From: Nostoc punctiforme PCC 73102
GTDB lineage: Bacteria > Cyanobacteriota > Cyanobacteriia > Cyanobacteriales > Nostocaceae
Direction of reading: 5' to 3'
Length of the DNA stretch: 32,000 nucleotides
Assembly (NCBI RefSeq): GCF_000020025.1
Contig: NC_010628.1
Coordinates: forward strand, 990,001-1,022,000
The first letter of the stretch is position 1. Each line of letters opens with the position of its first letter. The notes beneath the pieces are model-generated. The model did not search any database. It worked only from the letters and a program-made list of their open reading frames with translations, and was not told where the DNA came from. A program made the translations under genes and the position numbers. Below are positions 7,765 through 22,622 of the stretch, in pieces.

Positions 7765-8268
7765 TTAGACAGTTAAGTGTACCTGTGTGATACCTTGACG
7801 CATTTTATATTGTCGCTTTAACCAAGACTTTTTAATTATTTTACGGAGCAAGGGAGCGAGTTGACTCAACAGCGATCGCAACAGTGCATTTTTTCGCAGT
7901 AGTTCGCCTTGTTTAGCTTCCTCTAACTGGAGTTGCAGGGCGCGGATAATTTCTGGCTCACGTTCTGCTTGGATGTGCGATAGTGCCATATCAATGTCCT
8001 GGTGTTCGGCTTCTTTGTGCAACAACGGCACAAGATGATTAGCAGCGACAATCACATCACGCAATGCTAAATTAATTCCTTGAGCGCGGACAGGAGACAT
8101 TGGGTGTGCCGCGTCACCCAGAAGCAATACCCCTGGTGCGTGCCATTGGGGACAATAACCTGCGCCTACAATCACAATCTGCACTACCTTAGCCCTCCCG
8201 TATTGGTTGTTCTCAAAGGTGTTCTGCACTAGTTCCAGAATAACGAACCACAGAGGCGCAGAGAACAC
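7765..8268 (-). pseudogene. truncated FAD-dependent monooxygenase (UbiH/PHBH-type) remnant
   Basis: The 167-aa ORF retains only the C-terminal FAD-contact motif LLLGDAAHPMSPVRAQGINLALRDV. The N-terminal GxGxxG Rossmann half (about 200 aa in this family) is absent. Only 40 bp separate the ORF from the next gene. Confidence 0.6.
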
Positions 8269-10421: not shown

Positions 10422-11324
10422 ATGAATTCCGAATCGAAACTTTCTCAAACAGCCAATTCGTCATTTACGATGGACGATTTTGCCAAAGCGCTAGAAAAAC
10501 ACGACTACCAGTTTCAAAAGGGACAGGTTGTACATGGCAAAGTGTTCCAACTTGACCATGATGGAGCTTATGTCGATATTGGTGGCAAGTCGTCAGCTTT
10601 TCTACCGCGCGATGAGGCTTCTTTGAGAGCAGTTACCGATTTATCGGAAGTGCTGCCATTGCAAGAGGAAATGCAGTTTTTGATTATCCGAGATCAGGAT
10701 GCAGAAGGTCAAGTCACCCTTTCTCGCAAGCAGTTGGAAATTCAGCACATCTGGGAACGACTGGCTGAAATGCAGGAAAATGCTCAGACTGTGCAAGTAC
10801 GGGTTATGGGTGTGAATAAAGGTGGTGTCACCGTCGATATTCTCTCTTTGCGGGGGTTTATTCCGCGATCGCACTTGGCAGAGCGTGATAACTTAGACGC
10901 ACTCAAAGGTCAAAATCTGACTGTGGGCTTTTTGGAAATTAATAAAAATACCAACAAACTCATCCTTTCTCAGCGATTAGCAACTCGTTCTAGCAACTTC
11001 AGCTTATTAGAACTAGGTCAACTGGTGGAAGGTAAAGTTACTGGCATCAAACCTTTTGGTGTGTTTGTCGATTTAAATGGTATGGGGGCTTTGCTTCATA
11101 TCAAGCAGGTAAGCCAAAAATTCATTGACTCATTAGAAAAGGTATTTAAAGTTGGTCAGCCAATTAAAGCTGTAATTATTGACTTGGATGAAGGTAAAGG
11201 GCGGGTTGCTCTTTCTACCAGAGTTCTAGAAAACTTCCCTGGTGAAGTGCTAGAGAATATGGATGAGGTGATGGCTTCGGCTGAGGCGCGTGCTAATAGA
11301 GCTAATAACAAAGCTGCTGAATAG
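10422..11324 (+). CDS. S1 RNA-binding domain protein (ribosomal protein S1-like, short cyanobacterial paralog)
   Basis: 300 aa with three S1/OB repeats: GQVVHGKVFQLDHDGAYVDIGGKSSAFLP, VQVRVMGVNKGGVTVDILSLRGFIPRSH and GQLVEGKVTGIKPFGVFVDL. Confidence 0.85.
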   Translation: MNSESKLSQTANSSFTMDDFAKALEKHDYQFQKGQVVHGKVFQLDHDGAYVDIGGKSSAFLPRDEASLRAVTDLSEVLPLQEEMQFLIIRDQDAEGQVTLSRKQLEIQHIWERLAEMQENAQTVQVRVMGVNKGGVTVDILSLRGFIPRSHLAERDNLDALKGQNLTVGFLEINKNTNKLILSQRLATRSSNFSLLELGQLVEGKVTGIKPFGVFVDLNGMGALLHIKQVSQKFIDSLEKVFKVGQPIKAVIIDLDEGKGRVALSTRVLENFPGEVLENMDEVMASAEARANRANNKAAE

Positions 11325-11392
11325 TTTTGAAGTGAGCTGCTTGCACAAAGCGTTTAAATCCCCATGTGAAACAATTTTGAATTGTTAATACT

Positions 11393-11420
11393 CCCCCCTG
11401 TATCTACAAAGATATGGGGG
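11393..11420 (+). terminator. C-rich/G-rich hairpin downstream of the S1 gene
   Basis: CCCCCCTGTATC-TACAAA-GATATGGGGG read directly. A 7-bp hairpin (11371-11387) lies just upstream. A homologous copy of this module occurs at 13457-13482. Confidence 0.5.
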
Positions 11421-11608
11421 ATTGTAATTGGGAAAACTTTTTTCAGACTCCTTTCTGGTAGTCTATAAAGCTAGTTTTAAGGGTTTGTAGTAAGCACTTT
11501 AGTGCTTAAATTGCTATCAACCGCCAGTGCCAGATATCGTATCTCTGGAATGTTTATTAATTCGTAGAAAACAAACCTATTATAAATATTTATAAAAGTC
11601 TGAAGTGC

Positions 11609-12535
11609 TTAAATGTTGCAGTTCACAAGTCTCGACGCGAGAAAAGAGAATACCTCCTCCCCAAGCCCCTCTTTGAATTCCAAACAATCTGGGAGGTGTC
11701 CCTCAAATGCTGAAGTGTTAAAAGCTACATCTTCATTATCAATCCAGTATCCTTTAACTCTCCATCCTACACGATCGCCAAATTTTTCCCAGACTTCTTT
11801 ATAATATTCACCGTCAGCCTTCCCACCAACACTTAGATAAATGTTTTTCTGAACGCTAAAGCCAAAGCGCCCATCACTATATTTTACCCAAAGTTGGTCA
11901 ATAGTACGTAAGTCAGTACAGGGAAAATTATTGATGGATTCGATATCAAACCAGCCTTCCTCTTCCCTACTAGATGCCTTGAGCATGACAGCTAAAGTTT
12001 CCTCATCCGCTTCTTTCCACTTGCCTGCTGCTAGCAAATCTCGCAATCGCGTGTAGTTTACTCCCTTCTCAGAACTGAGGTCATCGACTTGAATTACTGG
12101 CTGTAGTTTTAGTTTTCGCTCTGGTCGTTTTCCAGTAATACCCCAAATTAACTGCCCCATAGCTTCAGTGTCTGTCCGAAAGTCAACCCATGTATTACCC
12201 CTAAGAAAAACTGGGAGTTTAGGCTGCTGTGGTGTATTCCCAAGCAAAACGGGAATCACGGGACAGTTTCTCTCTACAAATTCGTTTAAAAAAGCTCTCA
12301 TCTCTTGACTTTGCCAGGGGCCAAGTCCACTGCTACCTACAAAAACTGCTGCTGATTTAATATTTTCTATTTGTTCTTCTAGTAAAGACTGCCATGCTAA
12401 ACCAGGACGAAGTTCCCATTTATCTAGCCAAGGTTTAATTCCTTGTCTTGTTAATTCATGAGCAATTTCTATAACTTCAGGTTTGTCTTTGCTATTGTGG
12501 CAAAGGAAGATATCAAACTGATCTTCGTCACTCAT
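11609..12535 (-). CDS. TIR domain - GUN4 domain fusion protein
   Basis: The N-terminal ~125 aa is TIR-like: FDIFLCHNSKDKPEVIEIAHELTRQGIKPWLDKWELRPG...AAVFVGSSGLGPWQSQEM, including the W-x-x-x-E context of the catalytic Glu. The C-terminal ~135 aa is an unmistakable GUN4 core: GKWKEADEETLAVML...FPCTDLRTIDQLWVKYSDGRFGFSVQKNIY...VGWRV...FEGHLP. Confidence 0.85.
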   Translation of the reverse strand: MSDEDQFDIFLCHNSKDKPEVIEIAHELTRQGIKPWLDKWELRPGLAWQSLLEEQIENIKSAAVFVGSSGLGPWQSQEMRAFLNEFVERNCPVIPVLLGNTPQQPKLPVFLRGNTWVDFRTDTEAMGQLIWGITGKRPERKLKLQPVIQVDDLSSEKGVNYTRLRDLLAAGKWKEADEETLAVMLKASSREEEGWFDIESINNFPCTDLRTIDQLWVKYSDGRFGFSVQKNIYLSVGGKADGEYYKEVWEKFGDRVGWRVKGYWIDNEDVAFNTSAFEGHLPDCLEFKEGLGEEVFSFLASRLVNCNI

Positions 12536-12780
12536 CTATAAGTCTCCTTACACCTACTTCTCTATATCGACAATAATTGCCAACGCATTATACTTACTGC
12601 TTTAAATCCTTCTTCAACGATTCCAACTTCAGCATATAGAATGCCTTAAATTCTAGGTAAGAAGCAACTAAACCTGGGATATTAGTACTAATTTAAATCC
12701 TAACGAAGCTGATTCACGTTTATACAAACAAAGTCCGCCTCTTCGGACTAATGAAAAATATAGTGCTTCTCGTTTCTATG

Positions 12781-13039
12781 CAATACAGTCTAACCTCTCT
12801 CCTTTTAGGAGCTACGGTGTACACAAAAGTCCTATTACCCCCCTCAATCCCCCCTTTATAAGGGGGGAAGCCGGAAATCTAGTTCCCTCCCCTTTCCAAG
12901 GGGAGGGTTAGGGTGGGGTAAAACCTTGGTCAATAAGCTATTCCAGACTTGTGTGTACACCGTAGCCTTTTAGGAGAGAGGCTTTGAGTTTTACTCCCCT
13001 TCCCTTGCAGAGAAGGGGTTGGGGGTTAGGTCTGTATTG
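12781..13039. mobile_element. MITE-like nested palindromic element, non-coding
   Basis: Outer inverted repeats are CAATACAGTCTAACC (12781-) and GGTTAGGTCTGTATTG (-13039). Inner ~36-bp inverted repeats lie at 12794-12831 and 12946-12981 (CCTCTCTCC..CTACGGTGTACACA.AAGTC). The core holds GC hairpins (CCCCCCTTTATAAGGGGGG, CCCTCCCCTTTCCAAGGGGAGGG) of the kind dispersed in Nostoc genomes. Confidence 0.6.
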
Positions 13040-13115
13040 AACTTAAGTTAGTAGTTAATGCATCACAAAAATGAATTAAGTCGAATTTAATAAGCAAAGT
13101 GGCATTTGACTTACT

Positions 13116-13305
13116 CAAAAGCTCCTTTTACTTATTCAAAAGCTCTGTTTGCTTTCTCATTTCGGTATTTTCAGCAAGCAAAAGCTCTTTTTACTTACTA
13201 AAAAGCTCTGTTTGCTTTCTCATTTCAGTATTTTGAGCAAGCAAAAGCTCCTTTTACTTACTCAAAAGCTGTATTTGCCTTCTCATTTTGGTGTTCTCCG
13301 CAAGT
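13116..13305. repeat. three tandem copies of a 63-bp unit
   Basis: CAAAAGCTCCTTTTACTTA begins at 13116, 13179 and 13242. The unit is roughly CAAAAGCTC(C/T)TTTTACTTAYTMAAAAGCTCTGTTTGCTTTCTCATTTCRGTATTTTSAGCAAG, with an internal half-repeat (TTACTNANAAAGCTC). The third copy is more diverged. Confidence 0.85.
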
Positions 13306-13456
13306 AATCAAGCATATTGAGAAAGCAATATGGCAGAAAAATGAGCTATCCTGACCGATATCAGCAAGAAACTCTGCTGAACTTGCACAAGGCTAAGATG
13401 TCACTTGAACAAGCTATCGACTTTTTGAGCCAATAAAACTGATTTTATTACCCCAT

Positions 13457-13482
13457 CCCCTGCATCTACAAAAATGTCGGGG
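13457..13482 (+). terminator. hairpin plus T-run, homologous to the 11393-11420 module
   Basis: CCCCTGCATC-TACAAAAA-TGTCGGGG followed by ATAATTTTTT, read directly. Confidence 0.45.
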
Positions 13483-13608
13483 ATAATTTTTTGAGATTAA
13501 GATAAATAAGGTGTGACCAATTGGCTTAGTTGGCGTGAGGATATCTTGACCATATATCGGGCATTTTGACAACTATAAACGCTGCAACTATTCAATTTAG
13601 GTATTTAT

Positions 13609-18541: not shown

Positions 18542-21500
18542 TTACCCCGTCTCAATTGGCAACCTGACATTAAGATCCAAACGAAAAGTACCATAGGGAT
18601 TAACGTGACCCCAAATTAAAGGCGAAAGCGCCCGCAAATCCTCCAACTTCATCAACTTCATCCATTGTGGTTGGGACAAAACCTCCTGAATCATCAACGT
18701 ATTTATATATACCAAAGATATCTGGAGTAAATGCAGAGATAACACAGCTAATTCTTGGTCAGACAAACGATTAGTAGCAATCTCCCCACCCTTGCCGTAA
18801 AAAATAAAACTGTTAGCACTATTCCAGTTCTCCACCACGTTGAGTCCAGCATTTATCTCTTGTCGCAGTTCAACCGAATGCAGGTATTTACATAAAAATA
18901 TAGTTTTTACAGCCTTGCCCAATTCCGCCAAGGCTTGATAAGTAGGGTGTAATAAATTACCCCTAGTAAAACGCTTTAAGATGGCTTCAGTTTCTGCCAT
19001 ACCCAAACGCAAAGCAGTAGCATACTTCACCATTTGGTCGTATTGTTGGCGAATTAAATCCCAATTAATAGCGCGAGTTAAAATAGGTTGCAAGTTTGGA
19101 TAAGCATCATTATTTCCAGTTGAAGGACGGTATAATTTCTGAACATTGATACGTTTAAGACGCGGCATTAACTGAAAACCCAGTAAATGACAGAAAGCAA
19201 AAGCCACTTCATTTTGACCGTGACTATCCACATAATTTGTCTCCACTTTCATCTCAGTACAGTGGCGTAATAATCCTTCAATCATGGCTGCCACTTCAGA
19301 AGAAGAACAAGTTTTTAACTGTGAATAAATACAAACAGAATTCTTCTCAACGTGCCAATAAATCATCACACCTCTTCCACCATAACGGATGTGCCACTCA
19401 GTCATTAAGTTTTGATCCCAAGCACCAAACTTTTTCGAGTCAGAAGCACAGGCGGTTGTACCCTCTCCCCAAATAGTAGAAATTCTGGCAGTAAAAATTG
19501 CATTTGCAATACAGGCAATAGCATTACGTAATTGTTCTTTCTGAATAAAATGACGCTTAACATGGAGTAAATCTTGATAATTGTCGCCTTTAATCTCATC
19601 ACTTAAACGCTTTAATCCAGTATTCGTTCCTAAACCATATAAACAAAGTAGCAAGCGTTTTTGTAAAGTATATTCGCCTAAAACCTCTCGTGTTGATACA
19701 CTCTGAAAGTGTTGGCTAAACTTAACTCGCAAATCAGTCTCTTTCAGAATATCTAAGAGGCTAGTCATGCGCCAACGCCTAGTAATTTCAGTTTTCAACC
19801 TAGTCAAATTAGTCGGTTCATTTTGAGGATTCAGAGGAGAAACACAAATTCGACTTTTGCCTGTCGTTTTAAGTGTGACTAAACTATTTTTAGGTATTCC
19901 TTTATCCAGTAAAGTTAATGATTGCTCCAAAGATTGCTGTAAATTAGCAATAAAGACTTCTACATCGGATGGTTGTTTCAAAGCTTGGAAATATTCTAAT
20001 CTTTGCGCCTCAAAATCAGCAGGTAAATCTTCTTCAGGGTTTCTGTAACGATTAGCTCCTACAACCCATATTTCCTTGCATCTCAGCTTTTCTCTCAATG
20101 CTTGCAGCACGCTCAACTCATAATTAATGCGATTAACTTTGATTTCATCGTCTGCTCCCGTCTCTAATATAATTTCTTGCCAACCACTACGTAATACCCC
20201 CTCAATGGGTATATCTTCTCCAGCATCATAATAACGCTGTTTACTATCAGCATACTTTTTTAGTAAAGATATCGCTTGAATAACTGGACGATGAACTTCA
20301 TTATTTGAACGAAATTCGAGCTTGTTTAAAATTAACGGTAAAATTCGCCGATAATATCCACCATAAGAAGAGCGCATCACCGTATAAACTTTCTCACGGT
20401 AAGCATTCCCTGTAGATTTATACTCTTTCACTAAATTCTTGAGAGTCACTTCACTTACTACAGGAAAAATCACATCCTTGACTGTGCCATCAGGTGTTTT
20501 CAAGGAAGCTTCTGCCATTTGGTATAGTAGATTATTCTTCCCATGAACCCGTTTAAAATCCTGAATAAGCTCTTTATCTACACGTTTTTCTGCATTCACA
20601 CCTATGCGATGGACAATCTGAATGAGTAACTCTACTAAATTATCTATAACTTCTTGACTTCTGAGCCAACAAAAAGCTGTAAATAGTGTGTAGCGAATAT
20701 GTTCTGGGTGACGGCGTAAGTCACGAGGATGTTCAACAATTACCCGACTTTTATAGACTTGGAGAACTTTGGTAGAGATGTTTTTAAATAAGTCTGTTGG
20801 TAATTCTAATTGCTCAAAAATCTCTAATTTAGCAACTTCCTTTTGAAAACTTTCTACACCAATTCTCCCTGGGTCTGTTTTTAATTCAGCCCATGTTAAT
20901 CTAGTCACTTCAGTGTTTATTTCTGAGTTATTCGTGTCATCTAACTGTTGAGATAATTGGATATCTCCTGGATTATTCAGTTGTTTATCATGATTTGTTT
21001 GTGTGGTATCATCTAATTCCTGATCGGAAGCTTTCTCTTTCAAAAAATCATTTATCCACTTTTTAGATTGGTTAGATAGTTGGGAAGTTATGTCCCGAAA
21101 AAATTTAGATTCAAAATTTCTGATAGCAGAGCGAATGATACGTTCTAATCTGGAATCTGTCGGTGGTTCAAGTTTTAAATTCCGTAGTCTCGCTACTGCT
21201 GCAAGTTTTAGCTGTTCAAATTTTAACTCATAAATTAGTGCTTGTTCTGCTAACCAATTAGTTAACTCAAAAGCATCACTAACTTTGGTTTCTTGAAATC
21301 CAAAGAATTCTCTAATTTGAGCGCGATGATATTTTATGGAGCGTCCTTGCCAATCGTAGTAAGAGTACTTTTGGGGGGAAATATCTAAAAGTTTGGCAAC
21401 ATAATCAACAACATTTTGGGAGATTTCTTGATTATTCTCAGGAAATCTGGCATAAATCTCAAAAAACTTGAGCAATATAGCAAAACCTAACCGATTTTCG

Positions 21501-21586
21501 TCGTTTTTCTGATTCAGTAGTGCTAATTCAAGAGGGAGTAGCGTCCAATACTCTACTAATTCTTCTGGCTGCCAGGTTTTTTTCAT
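18542..21586 (-). CDS. tnpA: Tn3-family DDE transposase TnpA
   Basis: 1014 aa, the typical Tn3 TnpA length. The N-terminal DUF4158-like segment reads [22 protein letters not shown]-terminal catalytic-region contexts are [29 protein letters not shown] and [19 protein letters not shown]. The gene ends 62 bp inside the left IR. Confidence 0.93.
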
Positions 21587-21707
21587 TAAGTCTCACTCTT
21601 CAACCAAACAGTATTCTATCTTCTTTGGGGTAACAATCTTTAACTGAGATAAAATGCTGTTTCTCGATGAAAAACATACTGGAACTGAGTGATTCTATAT
21701 AATTGCC

Positions 21708-22622
21708 CTAAAGGTCAGCTTTTTGGTCGGAATTAATCAGTATATTCAAGGCATGACGTGCAGCTGATTCTGATTTCTGTGAGGTGACTTTAGCGTAACG
21801 TAAAGTTGTTTGAATGCTTTCATGTCCCATTAATGAGCATAATTCCTCAATACTGATTAACCCCACTCGTTCTGTAGCAAATGTATGTCGTAAATCGTGA
21901 ATGCGAACTCCTTGAAGGTGTGGATACTTATTGGTTGTCTCCCGCCAATAATCATGCAATGTATGGTAGCTGATTCTACTTACTTTTCGGGTAACTGGAT
22001 GTTGTGCTGTAAACAAGGCATTCGTATTTTGATGCCGTGAGTATTTCAAGTATTTAGCAAGCATTGAGGCTGCGTCATCACTGTAAAAACACCAGCGTTG
22101 TTTGTTGCCTTTACCTAATACTTGAAATTTCTGGTTCTTGATATCTACAGAATCTATGTTTAGGGCTAAAAGCTCTCCTATTCTGCATCCTGTGCGATGC
22201 AGTAAATGAACTATCGTACTTAGACGTAAGTCATCTTTTACGGCAGAATATAGTATATTTAGTTGTGATTGTGTTAGATATCTTATTGTCTCGTCGCTTT
22301 TATGTTCGCCTTTCTCTCTTTCAGGTAGACGTTGTTTTAGTCCCCGGATAGGGTTGGATTTTATATACCCTTGTTCTACTGCAAAGTTAAGCAAACTTTG
22401 TAATATTGCTTGATGCTTGTGGTGTGTTGTGTATTTTAAATGACTGAGATTATTTAGATACTCAACTAATGTTTGCTTACTGATAATTTCTATTGACCAA
22501 CTTCCATACTTTTGCAGTAAAAGTCCGAGGGTCAGTTCATAGGTTTCTCTAGTACTTGGTGCTAGACCAGGACGCTCTAGAAATTCGGTCGTGACAGTGG
22601 CTAAAGTTACAGCCGATTTCAC
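21708..22622 (-). CDS. tyrosine site-specific recombinase (TnpI/XerCD-like), probable cointegrate resolvase
   Basis: 304 aa with an N-terminal SAM-like core-binding domain. Catalytic contexts are HRTGCRIGELLAL (Arg), IHDLRHTFAT (His-x-x-Arg) and LMGHESIQTTLRYAKV (His...Tyr). It is co-directional with tnpA and upstream of it, as in Tn4430-type elements. Confidence 0.85.
   Translation of the reverse strand: MKSAVTLATVTTEFLERPGLAPSTRETYELTLGLLLQKYGSWSIEIISKQTLVEYLNNLSHLKYTTHHKHQAILQSLLNFAVEQGYIKSNPIRGLKQRLPEREKGEHKSDETIRYLTQSQLNILYSAVKDDLRLSTIVHLLHRTGCRIGELLALNIDSVDIKNQKFQVLGKGNKQRWCFYSDDAASMLAKYLKYSRHQNTNALFTAQHPVTRKVSRISYHTLHDYWRETTNKYPHLQGVRIHDLRHTFATERVGLISIEELCSLMGHESIQTTLRYAKVTSQKSESAARHALNILINSDQKADL

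Follow-up and report, generated by a model that had tools for sequence, protein, structure and literature searches.

The C-terminal end of a TIR-GUN4 protein from Nostoc punctiforme PCC 73102, like that of the GUN4-like family to which it belongs, is encoded by DNA that is used independently of reading frame. Where Gun4 proteins carry a ligand-contact segment, this family has a hypervariable, G/T-rich segment that follows a conserved GHLP motif, and the genes then run into one conserved DNA element that is entered in three frames and thereby explains three types of C-terminal tail. Both the segment and the three-frame element are newly recognised here, and no mention of either, or of the RAYT-like gene that accompanies them, was found in the accessible literature on GUN4 paralogs. 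The reading that we prefer, to which we give an even chance, is that the protein is a NAD+-consuming TIR effector, with E78 as its catalytic residue, controlled by a non-canonical and rapidly diversifying GUN4-like sensor.

The gene occupies positions 11609..12535 on the reverse strand of the window, meaning the whole 32,000-nt stretch of DNA that was analysed. It is a complete ORF with an ATG start, 308 codons and a stop, and its product is 100% identical to the N. punctiforme protein ACC79594.1 / B2IT96. An earlier note on this DNA had described a TIR-GUN4 fusion in a single 308-aa ORF, and both the ORF list and a Pfam search agree with it: TIR_2 matches aa 9-129 (E = 7e-25) and GUN4 matches aa 155-283 (E = 5e-41), the latter spanning just profile positions 2-124 of 141. 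An AlphaFold2 model of the protein has a pLDDT of 86.6 and a pTM of 0.56, so the orientation of the TIR domain relative to the GUN4-like domain is uncertain. The two are joined by a variable linker (aa 139-150; 12086..12121, reverse strand) with poorly conserved alignment columns and a pLDDT below 50 at aa 141-148, and the model ends in a single C-terminal helix (aa 292-305).

The hypervariable segment (DCLEFKEGLGEEV; aa 283-295; 11651..11689, reverse strand) begins directly after GHLP, at the position of the Gun4 LxNxLR ligand contacts, and is recognised by its variable sequence and length, its codon composition, ortholog comparison and hhalign. Its length ranges from 23 to 205 nt across the family. 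The base composition is G 34%, T 36%, A 17% and C 13%, whichever of the three codon positions is counted; that is, the segment has no codon periodicity, and it stays G/T-rich even though the genome is AT-rich. Among Nostoc orthologs, identity across the segment equals that of shuffled sequence. Their synonymous sites, by contrast, agree at 70-94% and the flank at 50-90%. Since the non-coding relic DNA next to it has kept an identity of 50-90% (mostly 70-84%), the segment has changed faster than neutral drift would predict. Local tandem duplications of flanking motifs are found within the variable segments. The variation is not rapid within populations, because the segments of Aphanizomenon and Dolichospermum are identical across many bloom samples, with no sign of within-population hypermutation. 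As regards gene conversion between paralogs, no variable cassettes were shared between non-orthologous loci in the sample, in which each genome was represented by an incomplete set of its paralogs, and no repeat copy of the segment was found within the 32,000-nt window. On its left side the segment has no boundary that is conserved at the DNA level: the GHLP codons show just ordinary codon bias.

On its right side, the segment abuts the conserved DNA element (11525..11650, reverse strand), which comprises the last 13 codons of the gene (tail SFLASRLVNCNI), the stop codon and ~85 nt of 3' flank. Conservation continues past the stop codon in 58-63 copies from many genera. The core of the element, TCTCGCGTCGAGACTTGT (11625-11642), has one exact copy in the window, with 0.04 expected by chance. 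Across the family the element is read in all three frames, giving the three C-terminal tail types, and the distance modulo 3 corresponds one-to-one to the tail type for all three. The element is conserved as nucleotide sequence, without wobble, across cyanobacterial orders, while the encoded proteins are merely 45-60% identical. A structured RNA or DNA within the element was considered and rejected: RNAalifold over 35 element copies gave zero consensus pairs, and single-stranded DNA folds of both strands showed nothing beyond a 5-bp hairpin, and their z-scores were not consistent. Rfam returned nothing meaningful for the whole window at gathering thresholds or for 11300-11720 at E<=10. No viral contigs with the element were found.

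The element extends into the DNA 3' of a gene for a RAYT-like protein that is convergent with the GUN4-like gene. What the window retains of this Y1/HUH transposase gene is a relic of its 3' end (11495..11556, approximate, forward strand), with no intact ORF. It was recognised by alignment with the final codons and stop of two RAYT-like genes (L087 and L027), and intact genes hold the same position elsewhere; tblastn gave no match in the window itself. The RAYT-like gene and GUN4-paralog genes are associated in both directions of testing. A RAYT-like gene or its relics accompany 35 of 88 loci selected for GUN4, convergent in every case and often degraded; conversely, a convergent GUN4-like domain is found at 45 of 56 metagenome loci selected for the RAYT-like gene. 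The element ties thousands of GUN4-like genes to the gene for a RAYT-like HUH enzyme. The earlier statement that the TIR-GUN4 gene has no partner is therefore true of the present locus, with its housekeeping neighbors, and does not hold for the family, whose RAYT-like partner has left its relic just downstream.

What is known of the partner comes from relatives. The RAYT-like protein is ~255 aa long, has a Y1_Tnp domain (8e-19), the HUH motif NHLH, a YIHANP motif and a long C-terminal extension, and its best NCBIfam match is REP_Tyr_transpos, with a score under the NCBIfam cutoff. The Y1_Tnp domain and the NHLH and YIHANP motifs are shared with RAYTs (class 2 TnpA-Y1) and with IS200/IS605 TnpA. 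Unlike RAYTs, however, the partner gene has conserved DNA on its 3' side only, no REP pairs, and a tie to GUN4-like genes. Indeed, the conserved flank lies solely on the 3' (GUN4) side, and the 5' flank shows no consensus in 63 copies. An IS200/IS605 or other ordinary insertion sequence was rejected for this reason, there being no conserved left end, and a RAYT/REPIN system was rejected because inverted REP pairs do not lie on both sides and the only hairpin is one of 5 bp.

What do the variable segment and its tail represent? One answer, which we consider somewhat unlikely, is that they are a tolerated scar of a RAYT/IS200-like element that landed at the 3' end of an ancestral GUN4 paralog; the segment would be slippage-prone and the region past GHLP dispensable, hence free to drift and shift frame, and the conserved parts of the protein would suffice, whether as TIR effector or in another capacity. 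Frame independence, the lack of codon periodicity and the local duplications of flanking motifs fit such a scar, yet the G/T-rich composition persists in an AT-rich genome, and the segment is randomised while the relic DNA beside it keeps 50-90% identity. The frequent degradation of RAYT genes fits as well, whereas the retention of a GUN4-like neighbor by 45 of 56 RAYT-like genes does not, and a RAYT 5' flank with no conserved end argues against the landing of an ordinary two-ended insertion sequence. The stability of the segment within bloom populations and the lack of cassettes common to non-orthologous loci in the sample also favor a passive scar; the conservation of the tail element without wobble across orders, in proteins of 45-60% identity, is hard to reconcile with one.

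An active role for the partner is another answer, and an unlikely one. GUN4-like sensor domains of cyanobacterial TIR, caspase and kinase effectors may have a diversification cassette of their own, in which the RAYT-like HUH endonuclease gene and the 3' element mark a site beside which the G/T-rich segment is rewritten without regard to frame. Whichever of the three frames results, the element would supply a tail that can be used and a stop codon, and the rewritten segment would stand where the GUN4 palm otherwise has the loop that contacts the ligand. Diversity-generating retroelements (DGRs) and Neisseria pilE/pilS conversion, the latter with a 3' Sma/Cla repeat and a G4 motif, are targeted diversification systems. 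By analogy, the GUN4-like genes resemble both in having a 3' hypervariable region in what may be a receptor-like gene, a conserved DNA border, an adjacent gene for a nucleic-acid enzyme and G-rich sequence. A DGR was nevertheless rejected, since there is no reverse transcriptase in the window and no template repeat, and since length and frame vary, unlike in DGR adenine mutagenesis. Silent donor cassettes like those of pilE/pilS were not seen among the sampled GUN4-like loci. With such a cassette at work, filamentous cyanobacteria would possess a variable set of receptors coupled to effectors of cell suicide, and the mechanism behind it would differ from DGRs, from shufflons and from the gene conversion of pilins; action of the RAYT-like enzyme on the segment would be a new bacterial means of diversifying receptors of the immune type. 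Should the enzyme not act there, the family still shows plainly how the end of a mobile element has become the C-terminus of a protein domain that is widespread. N. punctiforme is genetically tractable, so both outcomes are directly testable.

The second question is what the GUN4-like half senses. Its core (aa 151-282; 11690..12085, reverse strand), which ends in G279-H-L-P282, is clearly homologous to Gun4. Gun4 sequences in the PDB match this half at E = 1e-17, hhalign aligns it to a profile of true Gun4 with probability 100, and Foldseek superimposes the AlphaFold2 model on solved GUN4 cores with a TM of 0.8 and an rmsd of 2.4-2.8 Å. Gun4 itself, a cofactor of Mg-chelatase (Synechocystis Sll0558, PDB 1Y6I/4XKB/7E2T; T. 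elongatus 1Z3X), shares the helical core and the motifs through FGFSVQ and GHLP, and the helical palm is kept very well across the family up to that point. The likeness ends there. True Gun4 orthologs have an invariant motif across the LxNxLR segment, whereas the TIR-GUN4 protein reads D-C-L-E-F-K and the family has no consensus; in the whole family, the 12-residue ligand segment of Gun4 has been swapped for a hypervariable one with zero conserved residues. The hhalign alignment places the hypervariable segment opposite Gun4 L209-R217, and the palm residues V218 and A219 at the start of alpha7 map into it too. The protein thus lacks both LxNxLR (N211, R214) and the alpha7 start (R217, V218, A219). 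Its tail stops short of the equivalent of Gun4 W228, and the alpha7/alpha8 palm set (V218, A219, Y223, W228) is not retained. The two differ further in that Gun4 orthologs carry GUN4_N (PF16416), which the TIR-GUN4 protein lacks, having an attached TIR_2 domain instead, and in that a DNA element open to any reading frame encodes its C-terminus.

Because the segment with Asn211 and Arg214 is missing, the domain is not an orthologous Gun4; its sequence places it in the GUN4 paralog class. It has the features of the GUN4-paralog conflict-system modules (Kaur, Burroughs, Iyer, Aravind 2020/2021; sll1380-type, Rockwell et al. 2023), of which it is a member: a GUN4-like domain without N211, C-terminal to an effector domain.

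The earlier note had proposed that the GUN4 half senses Mg-protoporphyrin, protoporphyrin or bilins in the manner of Gun4, coupling tetrapyrrole or photosynthetic status to the NADase activity of the TIR domain. In favor of this are the clear homology to the Gun4 core, the shared fold and the conserved hydrophobic palm residues retained up to GHLP. A tetrapyrrole sensor that regulates an attached effector has also been proposed in silico (Kaur et al. 2020, PMC7159879), and GUN4 is regarded in the literature as a sensor on bacterial NACHT proteins. We nonetheless consider Gun4-type binding of Mg-protoporphyrin IX, protoporphyrin IX or bilins improbable, because the segment that contacts the ligand has been replaced by the variable segment and the element tail. 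Arg214 of Gun4, the residue for the porphyrin propionates, is "absolutely essential" for porphyrin binding, which R214A and R214E abolish (PMC1084334), and Asn211 is needed for bilin binding and is missing from all GUN4 paralogs (PMC10156173). Lys288 lies opposite Arg214 in the TIR-GUN4 protein, but in this protein alone, as the Lys is not conserved in the family. In place of Gun4 L209-A219 the family has sequence of variable length with no conserved residue, and the Pfam match ends at profile position 124 of 141. Moreover, loss of sll1380, the Synechocystis GUN4 paralog, causes no gun4 phenotypes (PMC10156173). A trigger acting through the lineage-specific variable surface or the remaining palm is more likely. 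Hence the name "GUN4" misleads here, since the tetrapyrrole-binding residues are gone, and experiments with protoporphyrin or bilin triggers are likely to fail. The palm itself is strongly conserved, which would allow it to bind a ligand that is hydrophobic or planar, perhaps even a tetrapyrrole in another pose. Of the one-gene switch that had been suggested, the one-protein sensor-effector is a reasonable reading, and the Gun4-like tetrapyrrole trigger is not supported.

The TIR half (aa 7-135; 12131..12517, reverse strand) is strongly conserved in the family. Foldseek matches of the model include the TIR domains of MyD88, AbTir and SARM1, and TM values of 0.76-0.78 against MyD88 and AbTir indicate that the TIR (flavodoxin-like) fold is present. 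The catalytic-Glu context GPWQSQEM had been pointed out from the sequence, and it withstands comparison: E78 (codon at 12302..12304, reverse strand), the last residue of the W74-Q-S-Q-E78 motif, aligns with the W-x-x-x-E glutamate in "WTNYEL" of AbTir and "WTEYEL" of BtTir, and is unchanged in 98 of 98 and 77 of 77 homologs in two alignments. In AbTir this residue is E208, which we take to be the catalytic glutamate of the WxxxE motif. E78 is therefore the candidate catalytic residue of a putative NADase. The best sequence matches of the TIR half are NAD+-cleaving bacterial TIRs (AbTir, BtTir) and defence-type profiles (retron-TIR, ThsB, SAVED-TIR). Bacterial TIR effectors (AbTir/BtTir, ThsB/Thoeris, TIR-SAVED, TIR-STING, SPARTA TIR-APAZ, retron-TIR) share with it the fold, the WxxxE glutamate, an N-terminal D-[IV]-F-[IL]-x-H-x-S-x-D-K strand motif and the logic of a sensor plus a TIR. 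It differs from them in its GUN4-like sensor, in the lack of a ThsA, cyclase, Argonaute or retron partner near the gene, and in a TIR subfamily that is unusually conserved, with 57-70% identity across phyla. The same module occurs at that identity in other phyla joined to other domains, as would be expected of an effector cassette that is shuffled between proteins. Thoeris was rejected: the ThsB profile matches are weak, and no ThsA-like (SIR2 or Macro-SLOG) gene is a neighbor. That the TIR domain is instead a non-enzymatic interaction scaffold in housekeeping signalling, for example in pigment or redox homeostasis, would fit its stable position, the housekeeping synteny in several Nostoc genomes, the lack of adjacent defence genes and the presence of MyD88 and MAL among the best Foldseek matches, but it is very improbable given the invariant glutamate aligned to that of AbTir and BtTir, the NADase and defence TIRs among the best sequence matches, and sister proteins in which caspases, kinases and Macro domains, all typical of conflict systems, accompany the GUN4-like module.

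How would a NAD+-consuming effector under a diversifying GUN4-like sensor work? The gene would encode a cytosolic sensor and effector in one protein. The sensor would be a cyanobacterial GUN4-paralog module, of the class that is joined to TIR, caspase, kinase, Macro and NTPase effectors, in which the palm is kept to GHLP, the LxNxLR/alpha7 ligand segment has given way to G/T-rich hypervariable DNA, and the conserved element, whatever the frame of entry, adds a short helix at the C-terminus. That element belongs to the 3' flank of the RAYT-like HUH transposase gene, degraded at the N. punctiforme locus. Sensing would activate the TIR domain, probably by self-association, leading to NAD+ depletion or an ADP-ribose-derived signal, and thus to arrest or death of the cell within the filament. 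A role in defence or cell death is consistent with the company that the module keeps. Among 104 representatives with a GUN4-like domain, the partners include caspase (14), kinase (14), TIR (9), Macro (2) and others.

The architecture is not new. Fusions of GUN4 to TIR, kinase, caspase and trypsin were already listed by Kaur et al. 2020 (PMC7159879), so that, of the claim that no functional description exists, the part that stands is that no experiment was found; the architecture and the sensor idea are both in that paper. Taken alone, the TIR-GUN4 architecture is a catalogued member of the cyanobacterial conflict-system repertoire. The GUN4-like half and tail also match the C-terminal 150 positions of PDLC04062 (E = 2.8e-49), one of more than 25 PADLOC sub-models for PD-T4-6 and a kinase+GUN4 profile; the TIR-GUN4 protein has no kinase. 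PD-T4-6 was rejected as defence evidence for GUN4, because true Gun4 matches the same sub-model. Nor does the match show that GUN4 is part of the E. coli PD-T4-6 that was tested, and the Streptococcus thermophilus "PD-T4-6" reports deal with PASTA kinases.

The neighbors of the gene in the window are housekeeping genes, no adjoining defence genes were found there, and the order ClpX ... GntR-DLH-S1-[TIR-GUN4 gene]-NmrA-HlyD is conserved in at least four Nostoc genomes. Such a stable housekeeping position is unlike that of typical mobile defence genes and counts against the preferred reading. A phage origin was rejected, as no phage record matches the protein and no viral contig has the element, and so was a plasmid origin, as its matches on plasmids are without exception GUN4 paralogs of cyanobacteria. 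The repeats and MITE-like DNA that had been noted near the gene from the sequence are indeed present. The upstream intergenic region (12536..13608) is rich in them, with an inverted repeat (12811-12831/12946-12966), a tandem array of three 63-nt units (13116-13304) and one copy of a 28-nt repeat (13457-13484), the other copy of which lies on the downstream side of the gene (11395-11422).

The window lies in the chromosome of Nostoc punctiforme PCC 73102, and its 308-aa ORF at 11609–12535 (minus strand) matches ACC79594.1 (UniProt B2IT96) with 100% identity. Pfam places TIR_2 at aa 9–129 (E = 7e-25) and GUN4 at aa 155–283 (E = 5e-41), the latter match ending at profile position 124 of 141. An AlphaFold2 model with 77 homologs as input has a mean pLDDT of 86.6 and a disordered linker at aa 141–148, and it matches both solved GUN4 cores (Chlamydomonas 4YKB, TM about 0.8, rmsd 2.4–2.8 Å) and TIR domains, MyD88, AbTir, and SARM1 among them. 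In sequence alignment, W74-Q-S-Q-E78 falls on WTNYEL in AbTir and on WTEYEL in BtTir, and across the TIR-GUN4 family E78, W74, Q75, G67, G70, and G72 vary little or not at all. Because the domains, the model matches, and this aligned, conserved motif all hold, the TIR-GUN4 fusion described in the earlier note is confirmed, and its quoted catalytic-Glu motif is real, with E78 a conserved candidate catalytic residue in a modeled TIR fold. A PADLOC bSEFIR profile also matches aa 92–172 (E = 9e-14), a stretch that runs from the end of the TIR across the linker into the first part of the GUN4-like domain.

What might this protein do? The best-supported reading of the sequence is that the TIR domain is a predicted NAD+-consuming effector that would be controlled by a non-canonical GUN4-like sensor, whose ligand-contact loop has become a fast-changing, lineage-specific segment. 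Such an effector would have NADase activity and a trigger, and might serve in defense or cell death. An enzymatic TIR role is favored because the TIR cassette, which is unusually conserved, is 57–70% identical across phyla and fused to other domains. The module alone reaches this identity in Chloroflexota, Acidobacteriota, Gammaproteobacteria, ‘Vecturithrix’, and Anaerolineae MAGs. There (L035, L059, L062, L065, L067, L068, L071, and L084), it is joined to other N- or C-terminal regions, for example as tandem TIRs or with an unknown 130-aa C-terminal domain.

Is the GUN4-like half a tetrapyrrole sensor, as the earlier note proposed? Porphyrin binding by Synechocystis Gun4 depends on Arg214, described as “absolutely essential,” and the palm residues include V218, A219, Y223, and W228 (PMC1084334). 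The LxNxLR motif, whose Asn211 is essential for bilin binding, is kept in Gun4 orthologs and missing from paralogs (Rockwell et al. 2023, PMC10156173). True Gun4 orthologs retrieved here are almost invariant after GHLP, the motif that closes the core. Profile-profile alignment (prob 100, E = 6.5e-41) sets D283-C-L-E-F-K288 of the window protein on Gun4 L209–R214, and the equivalent columns have no consensus whatever across the TIR-GUN4 family; Gun4's defining ligand residues were looked for and not found. The loss of these residues weakens the tetrapyrrole-sensor interpretation. Since the conserved core palm is retained, it is possible that the GUN4-like half could still bind some ligand. The sensor hypothesis is also an already published in silico prediction, since Kaur et al. 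(2020) listed GUN4 fusions with TIR, kinase, caspase, and trypsin domains and proposed that tetrapyrrole binding regulates these enzymes allosterically (PMC7159879); the sensor role comes up again in a preprint on bacterial NACHT proteins. Hence, the claim that the architecture has no functional description stands for experiments, none of which on this prediction was found in the literature search, and fails for the idea itself.

Conservation ends at GHLP in every GUN4-paralog domain examined, whatever the N-terminal partner, and the segment that follows differs in sequence and in length. Its coding strand is 34% G, 36% T, 17% A, and 13% C, with equal composition at the three codon positions, and the core domain has normal codon periodicity. 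Because the DNA is G/T-rich at all codon positions, the encoded segments are rich in Gly, Cys, Val, Trp, and Phe, and poor in Lys, Gln, Pro, Asp, Thr, and Asn. Among seven Nostoc orthologs, identity is 83%–92% in core DNA, 70%–94% at synonymous third positions, 50%–90% in the 3′ flanks, and 20%–56% in the variable segments. Since the last range equals the shuffled baseline (22%–57%) and the other DNA is more alike, the segment has been randomized much faster than adjacent neutral-like sites. Within populations of Aphanizomenon/Dolichospermum, it is stable. Flanking motifs are locally duplicated in tandem inside several variable segments.

After the variable segment comes a conserved tail of one of three types, ..SSLASRLVNCNI, ..LFSRIETCKL, or ..SLLSHRDL. 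Behind all three lies a single DNA element, approximately TTCTCTTCTCTCGC[A/G]TCGAGACTTGTAAA, with one tail per reading frame. Taken modulo 3, the spacing between the GHLP codons and the element is 0 in 28, 1 in 14, and 2 in 35 of 77 unique copies, and each class yields exactly one tail type. The element continues past the stop codon, with at least 130 nt conserved in 58–63 copies. Copies span Nostocales, Oscillatoriales, and Leptolyngbyales, and the element also follows, on the 3′ side, divergent GUN4-like domains of WD40 and CHAT proteins; the window has one exact copy of the core, at 11625–11642. Searches for an Rfam family, a consensus RNA structure, a stable DNA fold, and phage or viral occurrence found none. 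In many relatives (P0015, P0028, P0031, P0033, P0121, and others), two to four GUN4-like domains stand in tandem. Every one of these domains has a variable segment and a tail element to itself, and the stop codons are removed, which lets translation run on into the domain that follows. In some paralogs (P0127, P0140, P0164, and P0217), long hydrophobic, transmembrane-like stretches after GHLP replace the short segment and tail.

The element's distal part forms the 3′ end of a convergent, RAYT-like gene of 254–256 aa. Its product matches Pfam Y1_Tnp (8e-19), has NHLH and YIHANP motifs, and has REP-associated tyrosine transposase as its best NCBIfam match (1.8e-20, below cutoff). The gene or its fragments occur in 35 of 88 sequences (87 loci plus the window, nearly all gathered via TIR-GUN4 or GUN4 homology), always convergent and about 90–130 nt past the element core. 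From the other direction, of 80 metagenome loci that encode the RAYT-like protein, 56 have enough downstream sequence, and 45 of these have a convergent GUN4-like domain. The association thus holds from both sides. In 63 full copies, the 5′ flank has no consensus and the 3′ flank is conserved as far as the tail. This one-sided conservation rules out both a two-ended IS200/IS605 element and a REP-flanked RAYT. In the window, only a 3′-end relic remains, around 11495–11556; the earlier note's “no partner gene” is correct for an intact partner at this locus and misses the gene that recurs beside GUN4 paralogs. In Tolypothrix campylonemoides (L006, 7047–9785), two Y1_Tnp ORFs make up the split RAYT-like gene adjoining TIR-GUN4, and an IS605 OrfB/TnpB-type gene comes after them. 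No paper was found on GUN4 paralogs with this gene or on the hypervariable segment, in a literature coverage that is incomplete, such that absence is not proof. Segment, three-frame element, and RAYT-like gene form an undescribed, family-wide arrangement that merits experimental follow-up.

How is the segment diversified? There are three options. First, the HUH enzyme may act at the conserved element. Second, gene conversion may occur among the many paralogs through the conserved flanks; no cassette sharing was seen in a limited sample. Third, G/T-rich DNA may be intrinsically unstable under relaxed constraint. Three observations speak against pure drift: the change is faster than neutral, the element is conserved as nucleotides whichever of the three frames is read, and the conserved flank is one-sided. 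None of these three observations identifies the diversifying process.

The TIR-GUN4 architecture is common. GUN4 is present in 120 of 120 90%-identity clusters among the matches listed in one search, nearly all with TIR_2 too. The GUN4-like half alone retrieves 5367 clusters at 50% identity; in a subset of 104, the N-terminal partners include caspase (14), protein kinase (14), TIR_2 (9), Macro, KAP NTPase, EAD1, WD40, and FGE-sulfatase. The window protein strongly matches PADLOC ‘PD-T4-6’ (PDLC04039–PDLC04064), a set of >25 Ser/Thr kinase sub-models. The match is to one kinase+GUN4 sub-model, PDLC04062, and because this includes a GUN4 domain, bona fide Gun4 and any GUN4 paralog are flagged. 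The match was rejected as a sign of defense, since true Gun4 also matches.

The gene's neighbors in the window are housekeeping genes. One flank holds asd, trigger factor, ClpP, ClpX, an alpha/beta hydrolase, a truncated FAD mono-oxygenase, GntR, a dienelactone hydrolase, and an S1-domain protein; the opposite flank holds an NmrA-like reductase, HlyD, and an S8 peptidase. The gene is vertically inherited at this locus, since orthologs (86% identity) occupy the equivalent position in three further Nostoc genomes and paralogs (about 60%) have unrelated contexts. The repeats and MITE-like DNA noted earlier are present: a 28-nt hairpin-type repeat, CCCCTGNATCTACAAANATNTNGGGGAT, flanks the gene (11395–11422 and 13457–13484); a MITE-like nested inverted repeat (12780–12990) has 21-nt arms (12811–12831/12946–12966) with G/C-rich palindromes inside; and a 63-nt unit built of a 21-nt sub-repeat occurs three times in tandem (13116–13304, 87% matches) within the intergenic stretch that precedes the NmrA-like gene. 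The FAD_binding_3 mono-oxygenase (7765–8268, minus strand), a 167-aa C-terminal fragment, is probably a decaying gene; the syntenic gene is 399–413 aa in Nostoc sp. C057 and FACHB-892 (L002, L004) and missing in L001. A Tn3-family transposase (1014 aa, DDE_Tnp_Tn3 + DUF4158) and tyrosine integrase at 18542–22622, flanked by S8 peptidase/HlyD and CARDB-S8 peptidase/ABC-C39 exporter genes, look like a mobile element inserted within a peptide-export cluster.
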